Notes: a model not told the origin generated them from the sequence alone. DNA of 64,000 nt from a phage (GCA_018015315.1 GCA_018015315.1_3629.1), one strand, 5' to 3'; positions 109 through 22,365 are shown, counted from the stretch's first letter. Numbers and translations are program-made.

Positions 109-459
109 TTATTTTGCATTCTTGCCTGTATTGCCGCCACGGTACCAGCGTTTACGGTGAAAATGGTAATAATCTCCATCAGCATTGAACATCAGATGAT
201 TTTCAATAACCAGTTTACGAAGGTGGGCCGGATCTTGTTCCATTCTTGCCAGATTCCGGCGGCTGTTACGTAAGCGGATAAACTCCATATTCAGGCCGTT
301 GATCGCAGTATGGATGTCAAAGTAACCACCTTTAAGACGTTCACGCATGGCGTTAAGTTCGGAACTGTATACAGATTTTTCACAAATCAGGGCATTAGCC
401 AGGGCGCGGACCTTGGCAAGGGGGTTAAGCTCATTAAGGTAATATAGTTTAACTTTCAT
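109..459 (-). CDS. hypothetical early protein (116 aa)
   Basis: ORF track; first gene of compact minus-strand chain; terminator hairpin downstream at 39-70. Confidence 0.5.
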   Translation of the reverse strand: MKVKLYYLNELNPLAKVRALANALICEKSVYSSELNAMRERLKGGYFDIHTAINGLNMEFIRLRNSRRNLARMEQDPAHLRKLVIENHLMFNADGDYYHFHRKRWYRGGNTGKNAK

Positions 460-476
460 AAAATCACCTGCTGAAA

Positions 477-2458: not shown

Positions 2459-3082
2459 TTATGAAAAACTCATCTCGCCAGATTCATCGACATCAAACCG
2501 CCAGTCGTTGGCCTGGATGAGGCCGATCAAGTTCTCTGCCGTGAACTGTTCAAGATATGCCTCTTCAAGGCTTGCGTAAACCTTGCAAGATAGCTCCCGC
2601 ACCGTCTCGGTGATCAACTCTTCCAGCTCTTCCACTTTGTCTTCTTGTTTGGCGGTCAGATCCAGCCAGGTAGCATCAATATACCCGTTGATAGTATTTT
2701 CGTGACTATAGCGGCTGTATGCGTCACGTTCAACACTGGCTGATAGCTCGCCATCATGCATTGTTCCGAACAAGTGACGGATTGAGCGGAACTTAGTCAG
2801 CGCCTTGACTTTACGCAGGAATTTTTCCAGATCTACATTTTCAGCGCTAATTGATGCACCGTCGCCCTGACACCAAAAGCCGGACCAATGTACTTCAGTA
2901 TCTTCAAGGCCATACTCTGGAAAAACATATTCTTTATAGTATTCAATTACACTTTCTGCGAAAAAGTTATCACCGCTATTTTCTTCCCTTTCGCGGACCA
3001 TTTCAACGGCTTTTTCTTTTTGTTCGTCGGTCAGCACGTCGAAAGATAAATTGTAACCTGCAGTAATGTTAACGGTAGTCAT
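2459..3082 (-). CDS. hypothetical acidic protein (207 aa)
   Basis: ORF track; downstream of promoter 3142-3169 and a 5' stem-loop; motif FWCQGDGA not assigned to a family. Confidence 0.6.
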   Translation of the reverse strand: MTTVNITAGYNLSFDVLTDEQKEKAVEMVREREENSGDNFFAESVIEYYKEYVFPEYGLEDTEVHWSGFWCQGDGASISAENVDLEKFLRKVKALTKFRSIRHLFGTMHDGELSASVERDAYSRYSHENTINGYIDATWLDLTAKQEDKVEELEELITETVRELSCKVYASLEEAYLEQFTAENLIGLIQANDWRFDVDESGEMSFS

Positions 3083-3141
3083 GATATTTTCTCCTGTTTT
3101 CTTTTAAGTGGTGGCGGGAATTGTTCCCGCCTATGTGGTTA

Positions 3142-3169
3142 AGTATACTTGTTTAATCTTACTTGTCAA
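3142..3169 (-). promoter_or_regulatory. sigma70-type early promoter
   Basis: -35 TTGACA, 16-nt spacer, -10 TATACT; A/T-rich upstream; 5' stem-loop GGCGGGAA-ttg-TTCCCGCC at 3113-3131. Confidence 0.6.
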
Positions 3170-3419
3170 CACTATTTTTTAAATTATTGTGGCGTAAAAA
3201 GTTCAAGATCTCTTCAACATTGTCAACACGGCGGCAATTTTTGAACGCTACCAATTGCCCCAGGATTTTAATCACCGGGCGGCCCTGGCAGTAGCCTTGA
3301 AGAAAGCGCGCCTTAACTTTATCGGTGGAACTATCACGCCACCAAACCGCTTTATTGTTGCAGTAGTAAAAATTATTCAGGACTACATCAACTTTATCAA
3401 AATTTTTTAATTTACGCAT
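3159..3419 (-). CDS. hypothetical protein (86 aa)
   Basis: ORF track; promoter 3453-3480 upstream. Confidence 0.5.
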   Translation of the reverse strand: MRKLKNFDKVDVVLNNFYYCNNKAVWWRDSSTDKVKARFLQGYCQGRPVIKILGQLVAFKNCRRVDNVEEILNFLRHNNLKNSVDK

Positions 3420-3452
3420 GGTGTTTACTCCTTCTCTCGTTTAGATGCGGTT

Positions 3453-3480
3453 AGTATACCCTAGCTATTCCAGATGTCAA
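3453..3480 (-). promoter_or_regulatory. sigma70-type early promoter
   Basis: -35 TTGACA, 16-nt spacer, -10 TATACT. Confidence 0.55.
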
Positions 3481-3483
3481 GCC

Positions 3484-3654
3484 TTAAATTAAATCACTGT
3501 CAAAATAAACTGCTTCATTTTCATCAATGATCTCAATCTTTTTCTTTCCTAGCTCTAGGACCATGTACCAGGCTTGATCCTGAGCGGCGTCGAGATTATC
3601 ATACCATGCAATATTAACGCCTTTTTCTGTTACGTAAAACATTTTATTTTCCAT
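3484..3654 (-). CDS. hypothetical small protein (56 aa)
   Basis: Hand-translated MENKMFYVTEKGVNIAWYDNLDAAQDQAWYMVLELGKKKIEIIDENEAVYFDSDLI; SD AAGGGGAA; below ORF-track size cutoff. Confidence 0.35.
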   Translation of the reverse strand: MENKMFYVTEKGVNIAWYDNLDAAQDQAWYMVLELGKKKIEIIDENEAVYFDSDLI

Positions 3655-3665
3655 GATGTTTCCCC

Positions 3666-3764
3666 TTATTTGGAATTGCTAATGATAAAGCCTGCAAGCA
3701 AACAACCTATAACAAAACATAGGCCGCACATTATTAGTGGATTTTTAATCAGCTCGGTTAGCAT
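3666..3764 (-). CDS. small hydrophobic peptide (32 aa)
   Basis: Hand-translated MLTELIKNPLIMCGLCFVIGCLLAGFIISNSK with SD GGAGG; stop overlaps SD of next gene. Confidence 0.25.
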   Translation of the reverse strand: MLTELIKNPLIMCGLCFVIGCLLAGFIISNSK

Positions 3765-3769
3765 TTTAT

Positions 3770-3982
3770 TTACGCCTCCAATGTCATGATCTCGAACCTG
3801 GCTATAATAATCCCTACATCCACAAAGCATACAGGATCAACCATCTGGTTACATATAACCAGATGATCATCTTCCTCGTCGATGTACCAGTCATTATTGG
3901 CCTGTATTTCGTCCAGGTCATAGTAATGGCCTGCTTTGTATTTGCATTGTGCCTTGTAGTTAGAAAAATCGCAATAGACCAT
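3770..3982 (-). CDS. hypothetical protein (about 70 aa)
   Basis: ORF 3770..4000 with likely start MVYCDFSNYK after SD AGGAGA. Confidence 0.45.
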   Translation of the reverse strand: MVYCDFSNYKAQCKYKAGHYYDLDEIQANNDWYIDEEDDHLVICNQMVDPVCFVDVGIIIARFEIMTLEA

Positions 3983-4167
3983 GTTTTTTGTCTCCTGCAC
4001 CTTTCCCTTTCTTTAAATGCATCATGCTATAAAGTGTTATCCTTGTCAATGATATTTTTAACGCCATAAAACGGCCCTAGACGATGTTTTCAGGTTAAGG
4101 AAGGTGATTGCATAGGTGGGGGCGTTTATGGCTGTTGTAGGGCCAACCAGGGGCGCTATTTGAGGAT

Positions 4168-4198
4168 AGAAATAAAAAGCCCCGCCATTGTGCGGGGC
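4168..4198 (-). terminator. intrinsic terminator (minus-strand)
   Basis: Stem AGCCCCGC/GCGGGGCU then UUUUAUUUC. Confidence 0.6.
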
Positions 4199-4206
4199 TA
4201 TGGTTG

Positions 4207-4404
4207 TTATTCTTCTTTGTGTCGGTATCTTTCTGCCTGGCGTTCACGTTCAAGAAGCAAACCAGGTAACTTACGGTCGTAATGGTTGCGCCATAGCTTG
4301 CCAAATCTTTTTGGTTTGTTTAGCTTGTTGTTACGCTGGCGGCGTTCCGGCAACTCTTCGGAATCATGGGAACGCTTTACAATTTTTTCGAAATTAATTT
4401 TCAT
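4207..4404 (-). CDS. small highly basic protein (about 65 aa), possible nucleic-acid binder
   Basis: ORF 4207..4446 trimmed to MKINFEK start with SD AAGGGGGAA; Lys/Arg-rich; terminator 4168-4198 follows. Confidence 0.5.
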   Translation of the reverse strand: MKINFEKIVKRSHDSEELPERRQRNNKLNKPKRFGKLWRNHYDRKLPGLLLERERQAERYRHKEE

Positions 4405-4744
4405 AAATTCCCCCTTTGCTAACCTCAATATTTGCCTGAATTGCACGAATACGGCGCTTTATAGCTTCCTGGTTTGTGTGATCGTATCCCCAAAAGTCTA
4501 CAATTTTAGCGCCTCCAGCCTCCAGGCGATATAGTGTTTCTTGCATTTTGTAAGCGGGGATCGGTCGCGGTGTTACCTGGTCGCCTTTTTCATTCTTATA
4601 CTTGATAATATAATCTTCGTTGTCGTTGAATACCCAAAAAGGGTACGCCTCAGGAGTACTGTCTGTTTTATTTTTAGATTGGATCTTGTTTACAATTAAA
4701 GCCGTAGCAATAGCGCCGATGATAAAACTTGCCCCGCTGATCAT
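4394..4744 (-). CDS. membrane-anchored protein (116 aa)
   Basis: ORF track; N-terminal hydrophobic segment ASFIIGAIATALIV. Confidence 0.5.
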   Translation of the reverse strand: MISGASFIIGAIATALIVNKIQSKNKTDSTPEAYPFWVFNDNEDYIIKYKNEKGDQVTPRPIPAYKMQETLYRLEAGGAKIVDFWGYDHTNQEAIKRRIRAIQANIEVSKGGIYEN

Positions 4745-4818
4745 ATACTTTCTCCTTTCATGGTGTTGATAAACTATCTTTATAGATGGCCCTGTTCCAG
4801 GACCACCGAAAAAACAAT

Positions 4819-5064
4819 TTATTTCACAATCCCCACAAAACAGATCCCACCTTCACCAACATAAGCAATATCGGTAACTTTGTAATTGGTTAAGATTTGT
4901 TTATTCAGCTCATTAATAAAATCATTCATAGCTGCGGTGTAGTTGTCTTCCATATCCAAGGCATAATCCCAGGTATAAACCTTTTTACGTCCGAACCCTT
5001 TTACCATGATGCGGGCGCTTTTGGTGTTGGTCGGTGCATAGTATTTGGTGATTAATGCTGCCAT
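4819..5064 (-). CDS. hypothetical protein (81 aa)
   Basis: ORF track. Confidence 0.5.
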   Translation of the reverse strand: MAALITKYYAPTNTKSARIMVKGFGRKKVYTWDYALDMEDNYTAAMNDFINELNKQILTNYKVTDIAYVGEGGICFVGIVK

Positions 5065-5101
5065 GATTTTAACTCCTCTGTAAGTGTTAACAGTTTTTTA
5101 G

Positions 5102-5145
5102 TTTACTTTATTGATGGCCCTGGTGTCAAGGCCATCTAAAAATAA
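5102..5145. repeat. 44-bp palindromic intercistronic element, copy 2
   Basis: Same sequence as copy 1; abuts stop codon of gene 5148..5498. Confidence 0.8.
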
Positions 5146-5147
5146 GC

Positions 5148-5498
5148 TTACTCGTTTTCTTCCAGCTCTGTAAGCTCTTCTTTCACTTCTTCAAGCTCTG
5201 CCTGCAATTCTTGATAGTCTTCATCGTCTTCAATATCCAAGCTATCAATATAATCGCTAAAGCCGCAGCGATAAGCGATAGGATCCAGCTCTCTGAGGAT
5301 ACGTGAAGGAAGGAAAGAGATACAGCCGATCATAATTTCACCGTGGATCTCATCCAACCATTCATCATATTTTTCGTCGTATTTGTCCTCGTCGATCTCG
5401 AAATTATCGATCTTGTCTTCAAGTTCTGCGATCTGTTTTTTCAGAGCAGCGATCTGCATAGCTTTTTCTGCGTCAGTCATAGTGATCGTGGTATTCAT
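5148..5498 (-). CDS. acidic coiled-coil protein (116 aa)
   Basis: ORF track; Glu/Asp-rich heptad-like sequence; promoter 5551-5578 upstream; 44-bp palindrome abuts stop. Confidence 0.55.
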   Translation of the reverse strand: MNTTITMTDAEKAMQIAALKKQIAELEDKIDNFEIDEDKYDEKYDEWLDEIHGEIMIGCISFLPSRILRELDPIAYRCGFSDYIDSLDIEDDEDYQELQAELEEVKEELTELEENE

Positions 5499-5550
5499 AA
5501 TGTTTTCTCCTTTTATGTGCTCTGGGATGTACTCCCGTTTACGTGTTTAA

Positions 5551-5578
5551 GTATACTGATTTAAGTTAGCTTGTCAAT
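5551..5578 (-). promoter_or_regulatory. sigma70-type early promoter
   Basis: -35 TTGACA, 16-nt spacer, -10 TATACT; short 5' hairpin 5525-5537. Confidence 0.6.
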
Positions 5579-5694
5579 TAAAAGTTTAAGAAAAATTTTG
5601 CAAAACTGTTAGCACTACTCATCAACATTCCCGCCAGGATATAACTAACAATGCAAGCAATTACAGTTATTTTTGTATAACTATGTTTACTCAT
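5579..5694 (-). CDS. small membrane peptide (37 aa)
   Basis: Hand-translated MSKHSYTKITVIACIVSYILAGMLMSSANSFAKFFLNF with SD AAGGGGAG. Confidence 0.3.
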
Positions 5695-5734
5695 CTTATA
5701 TACTCCCCTTTTTGTAGTATTCTCTATATCTAAT

Positions 5735-5779
5735 TTATTTTATTTGATGGCCCTGGTTATCAAGGCCATCTAAAAATAA
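5735..5779. repeat. 44-bp palindromic intercistronic element, copy 3 (variant loop)
   Basis: GATGGCCctggttatcaaGGCCATCtaaaaataa; abuts stop codon of gene 5782..6168. Confidence 0.75.
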
Positions 5780-5781
5780 AC

Positions 5782-6168
5782 TCAGTAATTTTTCAACACT
5801 TTCCCGTCCAGTCTGTCAAGCTGGATCTCAATAGCTGCGGAGAATCTATTGTACACCACGTCGCCCATGGAGTCCAACCAATCTATAATATTATATACTT
5901 GCTCCTTGTTCTTGCAAGTACGTATCCGTTTCATAACGTATGCCGGATCAATATTGTTACTTCCGTGTTTATGGTCTTGCGCCAGGCTTGCAATAGCTTT
6001 CACCACCACTTGAAAGGGCTTCAAGGTGCCTTTTGCGTTCATCTCACGCGCTTTTGCGGCGCGGTTGTTATAGGTTACGATACGGCGGCAAATATTGACT
6101 AAATGCATGTCAATAATTTTTTCATCGTTTGCCAGCTCATTCATGATGCGACGGATATTTTTGTTCAT
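5782..6168 (-). CDS. hypothetical protein (128 aa)
   Basis: ORF track; promoter 6220-6247 plus 5' stem-loop upstream; 44-bp palindrome abuts stop. Confidence 0.55.
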   Translation of the reverse strand: MNKNIRRIMNELANDEKIIDMHLVNICRRIVTYNNRAAKAREMNAKGTLKPFQVVVKAIASLAQDHKHGSNNIDPAYVMKRIRTCKNKEQVYNIIDWLDSMGDVVYNRFSAAIEIQLDRLDGKVLKNY

Positions 6169-6219
6169 AGTGTTTTCTCCTAGTTGTGTTGGCGGGAATG
6201 TTTCCCGCCTTTGATATCT

Positions 6220-6247
6220 AGTCTACTTAAATTTTGCGGCGTGTCAA
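6220..6247 (-). promoter_or_regulatory. sigma70-type early promoter
   Basis: -35 TTGACA, 16-nt spacer, -10 TAGACT; 5' stem-loop GGCGGGAA-tgt-TTCCCGCC at 6191-6209. Confidence 0.55.
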
Positions 6248-6255
6248 ACTATTTT

Positions 6256-6654
6256 TTATTCGTGGGCGCATGTCACAATGTGCTTTTTATACCCCAGGTG
6301 GGCAGCAAGTGCTGACAAAAATTCTTCCTCATAGATCCAGCCGTTGGCAGTGATCCCCATAGCATTTAATGCGCTTTCAAGTGCTGCGTTGGCCTTATCA
6401 TAACCGTGTCCGCTGGCCTTGCCGCCAGTATAACCGTACTTATTGTTCTTGCTGTCGTGCATCCAAAAGACGCAATAATGAGTGTTACCGCTAGAGGCGG
6501 CATAATACCGGATCTCGGCTACTTCGTGTAAATTATTATCATCGTCCAGGCCAACCAGATTATAAGCCTTGTAAAATCCACGATCACGGCGGCAGTTCTT
6601 GACATCAGAAAAAGAGAAGTCGGCATTGTCAAAATTAAAGGTTGTGGTTTTCAT
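6256..6654 (-). CDS. hypothetical protein (132 aa)
   Basis: ORF track; promoter 6688-6715 upstream. Confidence 0.55.
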   Translation of the reverse strand: MKTTTFNFDNADFSFSDVKNCRRDRGFYKAYNLVGLDDDNNLHEVAEIRYYAASSGNTHYCVFWMHDSKNNKYGYTGGKASGHGYDKANAALESALNAMGITANGWIYEEEFLSALAAHLGYKKHIVTCAHE

Positions 6655-9323: not shown

Positions 9324-9330
9324 ATCATAC

Positions 9331-9522
9331 TCACTTGTTGTTAATAAGTTCTAAAACTTTCTGTCTTACTTTGTCAAGGTCTGTGGATTCAAAAACTGTA
9401 CGATATCCCCAACTTTGCCCATAGGAGTGACTGCAATCCCCGTAGCACCATTGCTCAATTTGATAGTATTCAAGGAACGGGTGCTGTCTAACTATGATAC
9501 CATCCCGGTTAAAAATTACCAT
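9331..9522 (-). CDS. hypothetical protein (63 aa)
   Basis: ORF track; promoter 9554-9581 upstream. Confidence 0.45.
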   Translation of the reverse strand: MVIFNRDGIIVRQHPFLEYYQIEQWCYGDCSHSYGQSWGYRTVFESTDLDKVRQKVLELINNK

Positions 9523-9553
9523 AATACATCACTCTCTGTTAGTTTATGCATAT

Positions 9554-11701: not shown

Positions 11702-11731
11702 CAAAAATGCCCCACCCTTTCAGGCAGGGCT
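11702..11731 (-). terminator. intrinsic terminator after SSB-like gene
   Basis: GCCCUGCC-UGAAA-GGGUGGGGC (G-U wobbles) then AUUUUUG; near-identical to terminator at 21848-21877. Confidence 0.6.
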
Positions 11732-21847: not shown

Positions 21848-21877
21848 GCAAAAAGCCCCACCCTTTCGGGCAGGGCC
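21848..21877 (-). terminator. intrinsic terminator upstream of MTase-like gene
   Basis: GGCCCUGCC-CGAAA-GGGUGGGGC then UUUUUG. Confidence 0.6.
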
Positions 21878-21882
21878 TAGTG

Positions 21883-22365
21883 TTAAACCCGGATACCTAT
21901 TGTATACTCGGTGGATACCAATGTCAAATCTAAATTTAAAATTTCTTGCATCTCATAGTATGCATCCAGGGTGAGATACATTTCCCCATCCTTTTCTACA
22001 TACTTGTCCAAGTGCTTGAGGCATTTCGGATAACTATTAAGGGCAGCCTTTAGGCACTCAAACTCTGTGCTGTTGATGAATCCTTCCATCTTGGCTACCC
22101 GTTCTGGGGTAACGATAGCACTGTAGTGAGATTTAGCTTCCTGAATGCAATGGGTCCAAGCATCAACTTTCTCTTCGAAAAGTCCGAAGAACTTCTTTTT
22201 GGTGAGCTTCAGATTCTTTAAGTGCTTAAGCACTCGGTTGCCGATCACAGATACATCACGAAACTTAAAGATCACTTTGTCAATATCCTCGCGGCCTATT
22301 TTTACAAAGCAAGCCTCGCACATTTCAGGAGAGGCATAACCTACTTTCCACATAAAATCTGACAT
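21883..22365 (-). CDS. hypothetical protein (160 aa)
   Basis: ORF track. Confidence 0.55.
   Translation of the reverse strand: MSDFMWKVGYASPEMCEACFVKIGREDIDKVIFKFRDVSVIGNRVLKHLKNLKLTKKKFFGLFEEKVDAWTHCIQEAKSHYSAIVTPERVAKMEGFINSTEFECLKAALNSYPKCLKHLDKYVEKDGEMYLTLDAYYEMQEILNLDLTLVSTEYTIGIRV

Follow-up and report, generated by a model that had tools for sequence, protein, structure and literature searches.

What does a GC-rich hairpin do when it recurs, at almost the same distance downstream of the -10 hexamer, behind several early promoters of one phage? We addressed this question in a 64,000-nucleotide (nt) stretch of phage DNA (GCA_018015315.1, GCA_018015315.1_3629.1), hereafter the window, whose bases 2800-6600 retrieved about 119 matches among phage records at 80-92% identity, nearly all from Vequintavirus; by this sequence similarity the source phage is a Vequintavirus, i.e., an rV5-like coliphage. 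Because the small genes of window positions 1-12 kb, the early genes, are carried by the minus strand, all promoter and hairpin elements are read on that strand. Gene content varies in the early region, which consists of small genes without assigned function. The repeated promoter units within it have the organisation of promoter-early stem-loops (PeSLs), and we lean, with some reserve, towards the reading that their hairpin stands at the 5' end of the messenger RNA (mRNA), where it would most likely act as a stabiliser.

The promoters themselves are readily recognised. A pattern search found three exact copies of TTGACA-N16-TATACT and one copy ending in TAGACT (Table 1). By our own estimate, about 0.008 chance matches to the exact pattern would be expected in 64 kb over both strands, and when up to two mismatches are allowed, there are 15 matches against 7.15 expected, a count reached in 0 of 100 shuffles. 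Among 21 Vequintavirus genomes (the sample for all per-site rates given here; 22-23 were used for hairpin position), the -35 hexamers show no variation and the -10 hexamers almost none, with variable spacers and flanks (0.05-0.13 differences per site in the spacers). The rV5 GenBank record annotates the orthologues of the promoters at 3453-3480 (P186) and 5550-5577 (P192) as sigma-70 promoters and leaves the two hairpin-bearing ones unannotated, while all of these promoters are predicted in the Gotham record. The rV5 genome paper (PMC3606486) lists 33 sigma-70-type promoters and 20 terminators, predicted from sequence only, without mapped start sites and without mention of promoter-associated hairpins. 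Taken together, hexamer conservation and annotation support sigma-70 promoters under selection, in line with the original prediction of early promoters. That prediction also held that at least three promoters share near-identical hexamers with 16-nt spacing, which is borne out by the three exact sites, but the promoter at 6220-6247 reads TAGACT rather than TATACT. Likewise, a strong stem-loop does follow two promoters (at 3113-3131 and 6191-6209), although only one of these, 3142-3169, is among the three exact TATACT sites.

The hairpin-bearing promoters belong to cassettes, c1 to c4 in the window, that share one order of parts. An A-rich stretch (AAAATAGT) precedes a near-consensus sigma-70 promoter; 9-10 nt further on stands a GC-rich hairpin of 7-9 bp, and a C/A-rich leader without structure then runs to a strong Shine-Dalgarno (SD) sequence and an ATG. 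The stop codon of the upstream gene lies within the A-rich stretch in c2 and c3 and within the promoter spacer in c1. The arrangement GGCGGGAA-N3-TTCCCGCC occurs only twice in the window, in c1 and c2, where 0.09 occurrences would be expected, and both hairpins begin exactly 10 nt after their own -10 hexamer. E. coli RNA polymerase initiates some 7-8 nt past this hexamer, and a start at that distance would put them at +3/+4, close to the +4 that had been proposed. The c3 cassette, which lies outside the span first described, emerged when the early strand was scanned for strong hairpins, and its stem differs from that of c1 and c2 in two pairs, both compensated. At c4 the hairpin is weak, but in relatives the same register holds GGGAA-AAC-TTCCC, the inner core of the c1 stem, which suggests that the c4 hairpin is a decayed version of the cassette hairpin. 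Hairpin energies run from -14.6 to -15.9 kcal/mol, and the c1 hairpin is followed by ACCACUUAAAAG, without a U-tract.

Table 1. Features of the promoter cassettes and neighbouring elements (window coordinates).
Feature	Position	Strand	Remarks
c1 A-rich motif TTTAAAAAATAGTG	3170-3183	minus	directly 5' of -35
c1 promoter, exact TTGACA-N16-TATACT	3142-3169	minus	pattern search
c1 -35 TTGACA	3164-3169	minus	invariant in 21 genomes
c1 upstream gene stop codon	3159-3161	minus	inside c1 spacer
c1 -10 TATACT	3142-3147	minus	16-nt spacer; TATACT or TATAAT in relatives
c1 hairpin GGCGGGAA-CAA-TTCCCGCC	3113-3131	minus	8 bp; -14.6 kcal/mol; 10 nt after -10
c1 SD AGGAG	3091-3095	minus	unpaired in centroid fold
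c1 ATG	3080-3082	minus	starts 207-aa gene 2459-3082 (rV5 ORF185)
c2 upstream gene stop codon	6256-6258	minus	in A-rich stretch
c2 promoter, TTGACA-N16-TAGACT	6220-6247	minus	pattern search
c2 -35 TTGACA	6242-6247	minus	ATAAAAAATAGT just 5'
c2 -10 TAGACT	6220-6225	minus	16-nt spacer; TAAACT in most relatives
c2 hairpin GGCGGGAA-ACA-TTCCCGCC	6191-6209	minus	10 nt after -10; then AACACAACU
c2 SD AGGAG	6177-6181	minus	
c2 ATG	6166-6168	minus	starts 128-aa gene 5782-6168 (rV5 ORF194)
c3 promoter, TTGCAA-N16-TATATT	2423-2450	minus	both hexamers invariant in 21 genomes
c3 hairpin GGGGGCAA-GACGT-TTGCCCCC	2393-2413	minus	-15.9 kcal/mol; 9 nt after -10; then ACACAAAACGAAGAGG
c3 ATG	2366-2368	minus	starts 126-aa gene 1988-2368 (rV5 ORF184)
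c4 promoter, exact TTGACA-N16-TATACT	5550-5577	minus	pattern search; rV5 'P192'
c4 hairpin GGGA-GTACA-TCCC	5524-5536	minus	weak, 4 bp; 5' of 116-aa gene 5148-5498
Promoter without hairpin, exact TTGACA-N16-TATACT	3453-3480	minus	pattern search; rV5 'P186'; 5' of 86-aa gene 3159-3419
Second-family hairpin GATGGCCTTG-ACAC-CAGGGCCATC	5113-5136	minus	10 bp; contains -35 TTGACA; then N18 and TAAACT
Further second-family copies	831-854, 5746-5770	minus	
Second-family variant	4785-4807	minus	
0.56-kb module, three small open reading frames (ORFs)	3481-4043	minus	bounded by TTGACA motifs 4044-4049 and 3498-3503

The similarity among the cassettes goes beyond chance and supports their being paralogous. 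Compared with shuffles, c1 and c2 resemble each other with z = 11.7 and c1 and c3 with z = 6.8 (copy-to-copy range 5-12), and c1 aligned to the c4 promoter (P5577) scores 31, where unrelated promoter pairs score about 5-10. The duplicated regulatory cassette proposed from the first inspection is thus retained and extended to four members in the window and six in rV5, where the two additional copies (c5 and c6, past the window's left edge) carry G-run hairpins with other stems 10 nt after the -10 hexamer. Strong structure is also over-represented behind promoters: in the 30-nt segment that starts 7 nt past the -10 hexamer, a folding energy of -12 kcal/mol or stronger is reached by 3 of the 15 strong promoters on the early strand, compared to 1.3% of random positions (binomial P ~9e-4).

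Comparison among Vequintavirus genomes provides good support for selection on the hairpin at its position. It starts 9-10 nt after the -10 hexamer in every cassette of the 22-23 genomes and in the two further rV5 cassettes as well. The c1 and c2 stems show 0.02-0.09 differences per site, versus 0.09-0.18 for spacers, initial transcribed regions and post-hairpin leaders, and the loops are the most variable part (0.17-0.38), with at least eight different loops across genomes and cassettes (CAA, AAC, AAA and CAC in c1). Some loops occur in both orientations among genomes, i.e., ACA or TGT in c2 (6199-6201) and GACGT or ACGTC in c3 (2401-2405), and are minute inversions of the kind made by intrastrand template switching at palindromes. 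The stems change too. In three genomes c2 has a 7-bp stem with a 4-nt loop, which shortens the half-site spacing from 19 to 18 nt. In MiataMamis the inner stem of c2 has been replaced to give GGCGGUUGA-UAC-UCAGCCGCC, a stem of 9 bp that includes one U.G pair; in a clade of five genomes c3 reads CGAG-AUGA-CUUG, with one G.U pair and a new G-C pair; and in IMGVR_UViG_3300010279_000001, a 137-kb sequence nearly identical to the window, the c1 stem reads GGTGGGAA, where a C-to-T change makes a U.G wobble on the early strand. All variants common to several genomes are compatible with early-strand pairing. Because the structure is kept through stem replacement, the hairpin itself appears to be under selection. 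Loops differ among lineages, and in some the stem has been replaced or compensated; the c1 and c2 stem sequence, on the other hand, is strongly conserved, and this extends to other genera. Such selection probably acts on the RNA of the early strand.

The cassettes correspond closely to a kind of element that has already been described, a match that the first inspection missed. PeSLs are known from the T4-like phages RB49/phi1, PST/T4 and nt-1/KVP40 (Arbiol et al. 2010, PMC2839356; Comeau et al. 2014, PMC4122927), in which copies recur among ORFans and reshuffle modules by recombination. They begin with A/T-rich DNA that includes the stop codon of the preceding gene; after it come a consensus sigma-70 promoter and, for the G-run/C-run stem-loop, a choice of five positions, with an SD and an ATG at the end. 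Their discoverers read them as terminators or attenuators and as recombination sites, with PeSL mini-circles documented in RB49/phi1 (PMC2839356). Each of these parts is found in the window sequence, from the near-consensus promoter, the upstream stop in its A-rich stretch and the stable G-run/C-run stem-loop to the SD and start codon at the 3' end, and the many copies cluster among ORFans where gene content varies. Indels coinciding with the copies, and module shuffling between them, were seen by comparison only (a deletion in phiWec189, the 0.56-kb module and c1 of phage V18, described below). Two of the published stem-loop positions are represented, 'downstream of the -10' by c1-c4 and 'overlapping the -35' by a second cassette family, and the phi1 PeSLs share the TTTAAAAATAGTTGACA motif, the TATACT hexamer and AAAATAGT. 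There are differences as well. The carrier is a Vequintavirus rather than a T4-like phage; whole cassettes have no detectable nucleotide homology to RB49/phi1; the stems begin 9-10 nt after the -10 hexamer and are thus expected inside the transcript, whereas the published subclass is described as lying just before the start site; and the cassettes lack a U-tract. Our literature search found no description of PeSLs in rV5-like phages. Judged by their sequence features, the cassettes are PeSLs, new for this group of phages.

The second family has the layout TTATTTTTA-GATGGCCTTGACnnCAGGGCCATC-AATAAAGTAAAyT, in which a 10-bp hairpin with one U.G pair spans the -35 hexamer. Its three copies per genome are conserved across the genus, stand right after upstream stop codons and resemble one another with z = 18.4; neither side shows a U-tract downstream. 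In phiWec189 the ORF193-ORF192 module between two of these GATGGCC cassettes has been lost and one hybrid cassette is kept at the junction. The 0.56-kb module is found in the window phage and MiataMamis but not in rV5, slur16, FV3, Aya, MaxTheCat or phiWec189, and c1 of V18 resembles a c4/c1 chimera. Compared across genomes, these cases show cassettes exchanging sequence and indels falling at promoter or cassette motifs, and the stereotyped repetition of the design would follow from such exchange among paralogous copies. In O157 typing phage 4 an apparent break just behind the c1 hairpin was also considered as a rearrangement and rejected: the assembly (3685-3760) enters a run of N there, and the GC hairpin may have caused a sequencing or assembly problem.

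As to what the hairpin does, stabilisation of the mRNA from its 5' end is the best-supported function because the hairpins have no early-strand U-tract and leave the ribosome-binding site free. The early-strand tails that follow them (ACCACUUA, AACACAAC, ACACAAAA) have 0-2 U in the next 8 nt, in contrast to true terminators nearby, which have a U-tract (4178-4199, 11709-11730 and 51-70), and in predicted folds of the leaders the hairpin alone forms, with SD and AUG free (z -3.6 to -4.6). Under this reading, host RNA polymerase would read the near-consensus sigma-70 promoter, and the cassette's own mRNA would open with the hairpin, preceded only by about 2-4 unpaired nt. In this position the hairpin would most likely hinder RppH and 5'-end-dependent attack by RNase E, and so increase the output of selected early proteins with the ribosome-binding site still open. 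A stabilising hairpin is said, from the 1992 work of Emory, Bouvet and Belasco, to need about 2-4 unpaired nt or fewer at the 5' end, and the register of 9-10 nt after the -10 hexamer predicts 2-4; the stabilising role proposed at first inspection fits this geometry. Well-studied examples of 5'-terminal stabilising stem-loops are E. coli ompA hp1 and papA (Emory, Bouvet and Belasco 1992; Bricker and Belasco 1999), to which PMC3997798 refers, and the leader hairpin of phage T7 gene 10. The cassettes resemble these in having a stable hairpin a few nt from the (here predicted) 5' end, an unstructured leader and a free ribosome-binding site, and in conserving structure and not loop sequence; they differ in that the hairpin is part of a repeated, recombining promoter cassette and the 5' end is predicted. 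In E. coli, a 5' hairpin has been found to stabilise mRNA and to impede removal of the 5' pyrophosphate by RppH (PMC3997798). Two other identities were considered for the hairpins. An RNase III site was rejected on the general ground that an 8-bp stem is too short, and a search of Rfam gave no family match, only one sub-threshold match over c3 (37.9 bits, the gathering score being 94.4).

Several observations weigh against a stabiliser and temper our preference for it. Only 3-4 of the approximately 15 early promoters in the window have a hairpin. Six single genomes carry a mismatch that weakens a stem, to between -7.5 and -10 kcal/mol, and stem transitions favour neither strand, with about three lineages each way: wobble pairs on the early strand in IMGVR_UViG_3300010279_000001 c1, MiataMamis c2 and the c3 clade, and early-strand mismatches that are wobbles on the other strand in the singletons Gotham c2, V18 c1 and A142 c2. 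Formal covariation is thin, as RNAalifold counts one pair with a two-sided change, partly because MAFFT mis-registers the replaced MiataMamis c2 stem. Other phage genera have an identical GGCGGGAA/TTCCCGCC stem, a hint of a sequence-specific constraint that a pure stabiliser does not need. The literature that we searched contained no Vequintavirus start-site, half-life or RNA-seq data, and the 5'-terminal position is predicted from promoter geometry alone. Finally, the discoverers of PeSLs demonstrated terminator-like activity for one stem-loop and favour a role as attenuator (PMC2839356).

The published interpretation would make the hairpins mainly terminators, attenuators or insulators against transcription arriving from the upstream unit, so that each small gene is expressed at its own level from its own promoter. 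In its favour, PeSL stem-loops have been called effective terminators, one of which cut lacZ expression as much as rrnB T1 (PMC2839356), and in the vB_Eco_Alma record both GGCGGGAA hairpins bear the label terminator. Each hairpin also lies only about 30-65 nt from the stop codon of the upstream gene. The hairpins share with intrinsic terminators a GC-rich 8-bp stem and a short loop, and the identical stem followed by a T-run is found in phage 121Q and at most of 116 IMG/VR sites; most other occurrences in viral contigs are ordinary terminators. However, the transcribed strand shows no U-tract after any of the three hairpins, whereas the genuine terminators nearby have one, and the hairpins stand after a promoter and not at a gene end. 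A hairpin downstream of its own -10 hexamer would, if it terminated efficiently, abort the transcripts of its own promoter at about +30, and an insulator needs no fixed 9-10-nt register to that hexamer. On balance, we consider a primarily terminating role unlikely, though worth keeping in view.

The stem also occurs outside the genus. Exact copies of GGCGGGAA/TTCCCGCC stand 9-12 nt after sigma-70-like promoters in phage 4MG, a Schickermooser-like phage and an unclassified 153-kb contig, with flanks that cannot be aligned. In the 153-kb contig the stem precedes a homologue of the c4 gene (36% protein identity), while in 4MG and the Schickermooser-like phage it precedes unrelated genes. Two scans of IMG/VR with short conserved anchors returned almost only chance matches, and the collection seems to hold two Vequintavirus contigs only. 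Because the exact stem follows sigma-70 promoters at this distance in all of these phages as well as in Vequintavirus, the stem may be sequence-specific, either as a crossover or recognition site in a system that exchanges promoter cassettes and so carries ORFans from one coliphage family to another, unrelated one, or as the target of a conserved phage or host factor controlling a subset of early transcripts; we regard this as distinctly unlikely.

Very unlikely, in our judgement, is that the palindromes persist mainly as parts of a mobile promoter cassette that recombines and thereby moves or deletes ORFan modules, with little direct role in expression. Such mobility would account for the V18 chimera, the module inserted between TTGACA motifs, the loss in phiWec189 at a single hybrid cassette and the promoter-coupled stem before unrelated genes in 4MG and the Schickermooser-like phage; loops in both orientations imply intrastrand pairing at the DNA level, and the mini-circles of RB49/phi1 provide a precedent. 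Against this, the c1 and c2 stems are more conserved than their flanks, and the retention of structure through stem replacement points to selection on the hairpin itself. Mobility is in any case compatible with a stabilising hairpin and not exclusive of it.

A dedicated, sequence-specific protein-binding site seems highly improbable, be it a DNA operator (+4 to +22) through which a dimeric repressor would switch off some of the early promoters or a nut-like RNA hairpin for a phage factor. The 8-bp arms are identical in c1 and c2 with a core common to c4, and the same arms recur in other genera amid unalignable flanks, but the changed half-site spacing in three genomes, the replaced inner half of both arms in MiataMamis c2, the other stems at the same position in c3, c5 and c6 and the freely varying loops argue against an operator or a boxB-like site. 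The boxB of lambda nutL/nutR needs a conserved loop and lies tens of nt downstream of its promoter; it shares with the cassettes one small hairpin shortly after two early promoters and differs from them in that here loops vary freely and stems are replaceable. Furthermore, no DNA-binding or other domain was found in five of the small proteins around the cassettes. Hardly credible, finally, are intrinsic terminators on the plus strand that stop antisense transcription ahead of the early promoters: T-rich runs do follow the hairpins on that strand (TTTGATATCT, TTGAGTTTTA), a scan flagged 6191-6209 and 2393-2413 as terminator-like there and the three singleton stem transitions keep pairing on that strand only, but no plus-strand genes or strong plus-strand promoters feed these sites, the tract on the opposite strand is incomplete (in c1 the tail, TATGTGGTTA, makes a poor U-tract), its T-richness simply reflects the A-rich initial transcribed region on the complementary strand, and the variants common to several genomes carry G.U pairs that work on the early strand only.

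With these cassettes, the known range of PeSL-type mobile regulatory elements widens from T4-like phages to rV5-like ones and, it appears, to 4MG and the Schickermooser-like phage, and the cassettes offer a concrete mechanism for ORFan turnover in the early regions of these phages. The stabilising role that we favour for the hairpin departs from the published terminator or attenuator reading, and the choice between terminator and 5' stabiliser is cleanly testable for the PeSL subclass with the stem-loop downstream of the -10 hexamer. Annotation is affected as well: at least one record labels the hairpins terminators, and the rV5 reference lacks two of the promoters. With its UP-like tract, consensus promoter, 5' hairpin, C/A-rich leader and strong SD, each cassette would also be a compact natural expression part.

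The 207-aa protein after c1 and the 128-aa protein after c2 have no similarity, and duplication of the genes themselves is rejected; these proteins gave no match in Pfam or the PDB and no informative PHROG match, those flanking the cassettes matching PHROGs of unknown function only. The 207-aa protein belongs to phrog_5162 and goes by 'YeeU-like antitoxin' in one record; its homologues are 57-60% identical in the jumbo phages 121Q, G17 and PBECO4-like phages and in TH18, and 32-45% identical in Munch, phiKp_21, GAP32 and CBB. Upstream of these homologues, the phiKp_21 leader has a strong but unrelated 10-bp hairpin early on and the TH18 leader a short GGCG/CCGCC remnant, while those of 121Q and Munch have no hairpin. 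The recurrence of a 5' hairpin ahead of this gene counts in favour of a stabiliser.

Several further observations were made along the way. Seventeen GenBank records (MG0656xx) named 'UNVERIFIED Campylobacter phage' are Vequintavirus genomes, 85-88% identical to the coliphage region, and their host label is probably wrong. Window positions 120-462, about 340 nt with most of a 116-aa ORF (109-459), are present in slur16 and MiataMamis and missing from rV5, FV3 and Aya; the junction of this indel is not at a promoter cassette. A 63-aa early ORFan (window 9327-9526) shares 89% protein and 84.5% DNA identity with ORF260 (2497-2696) of the Krischvirus Phi1, for which PeSLs were first defined, the homology running from 4 nt before the ATG to 4 nt after the stop, and upstream of Phi1 ORF260 are three tandem 27-nt repeats, each with TTGTTGAC. 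Lastly, at ~21850-21927 on the minus strand, a TTGACA-N17-TACAAT promoter is followed about 20 nt on by a strong U-tract terminator, GGCCCTGCCCGAAAGGGTGGGGCTTTTT. The transcript would be about 50 nt long, and the pair could be an attenuator or encode a small RNA; the terminator stem at 11709-11730 is nearly the same as this one.

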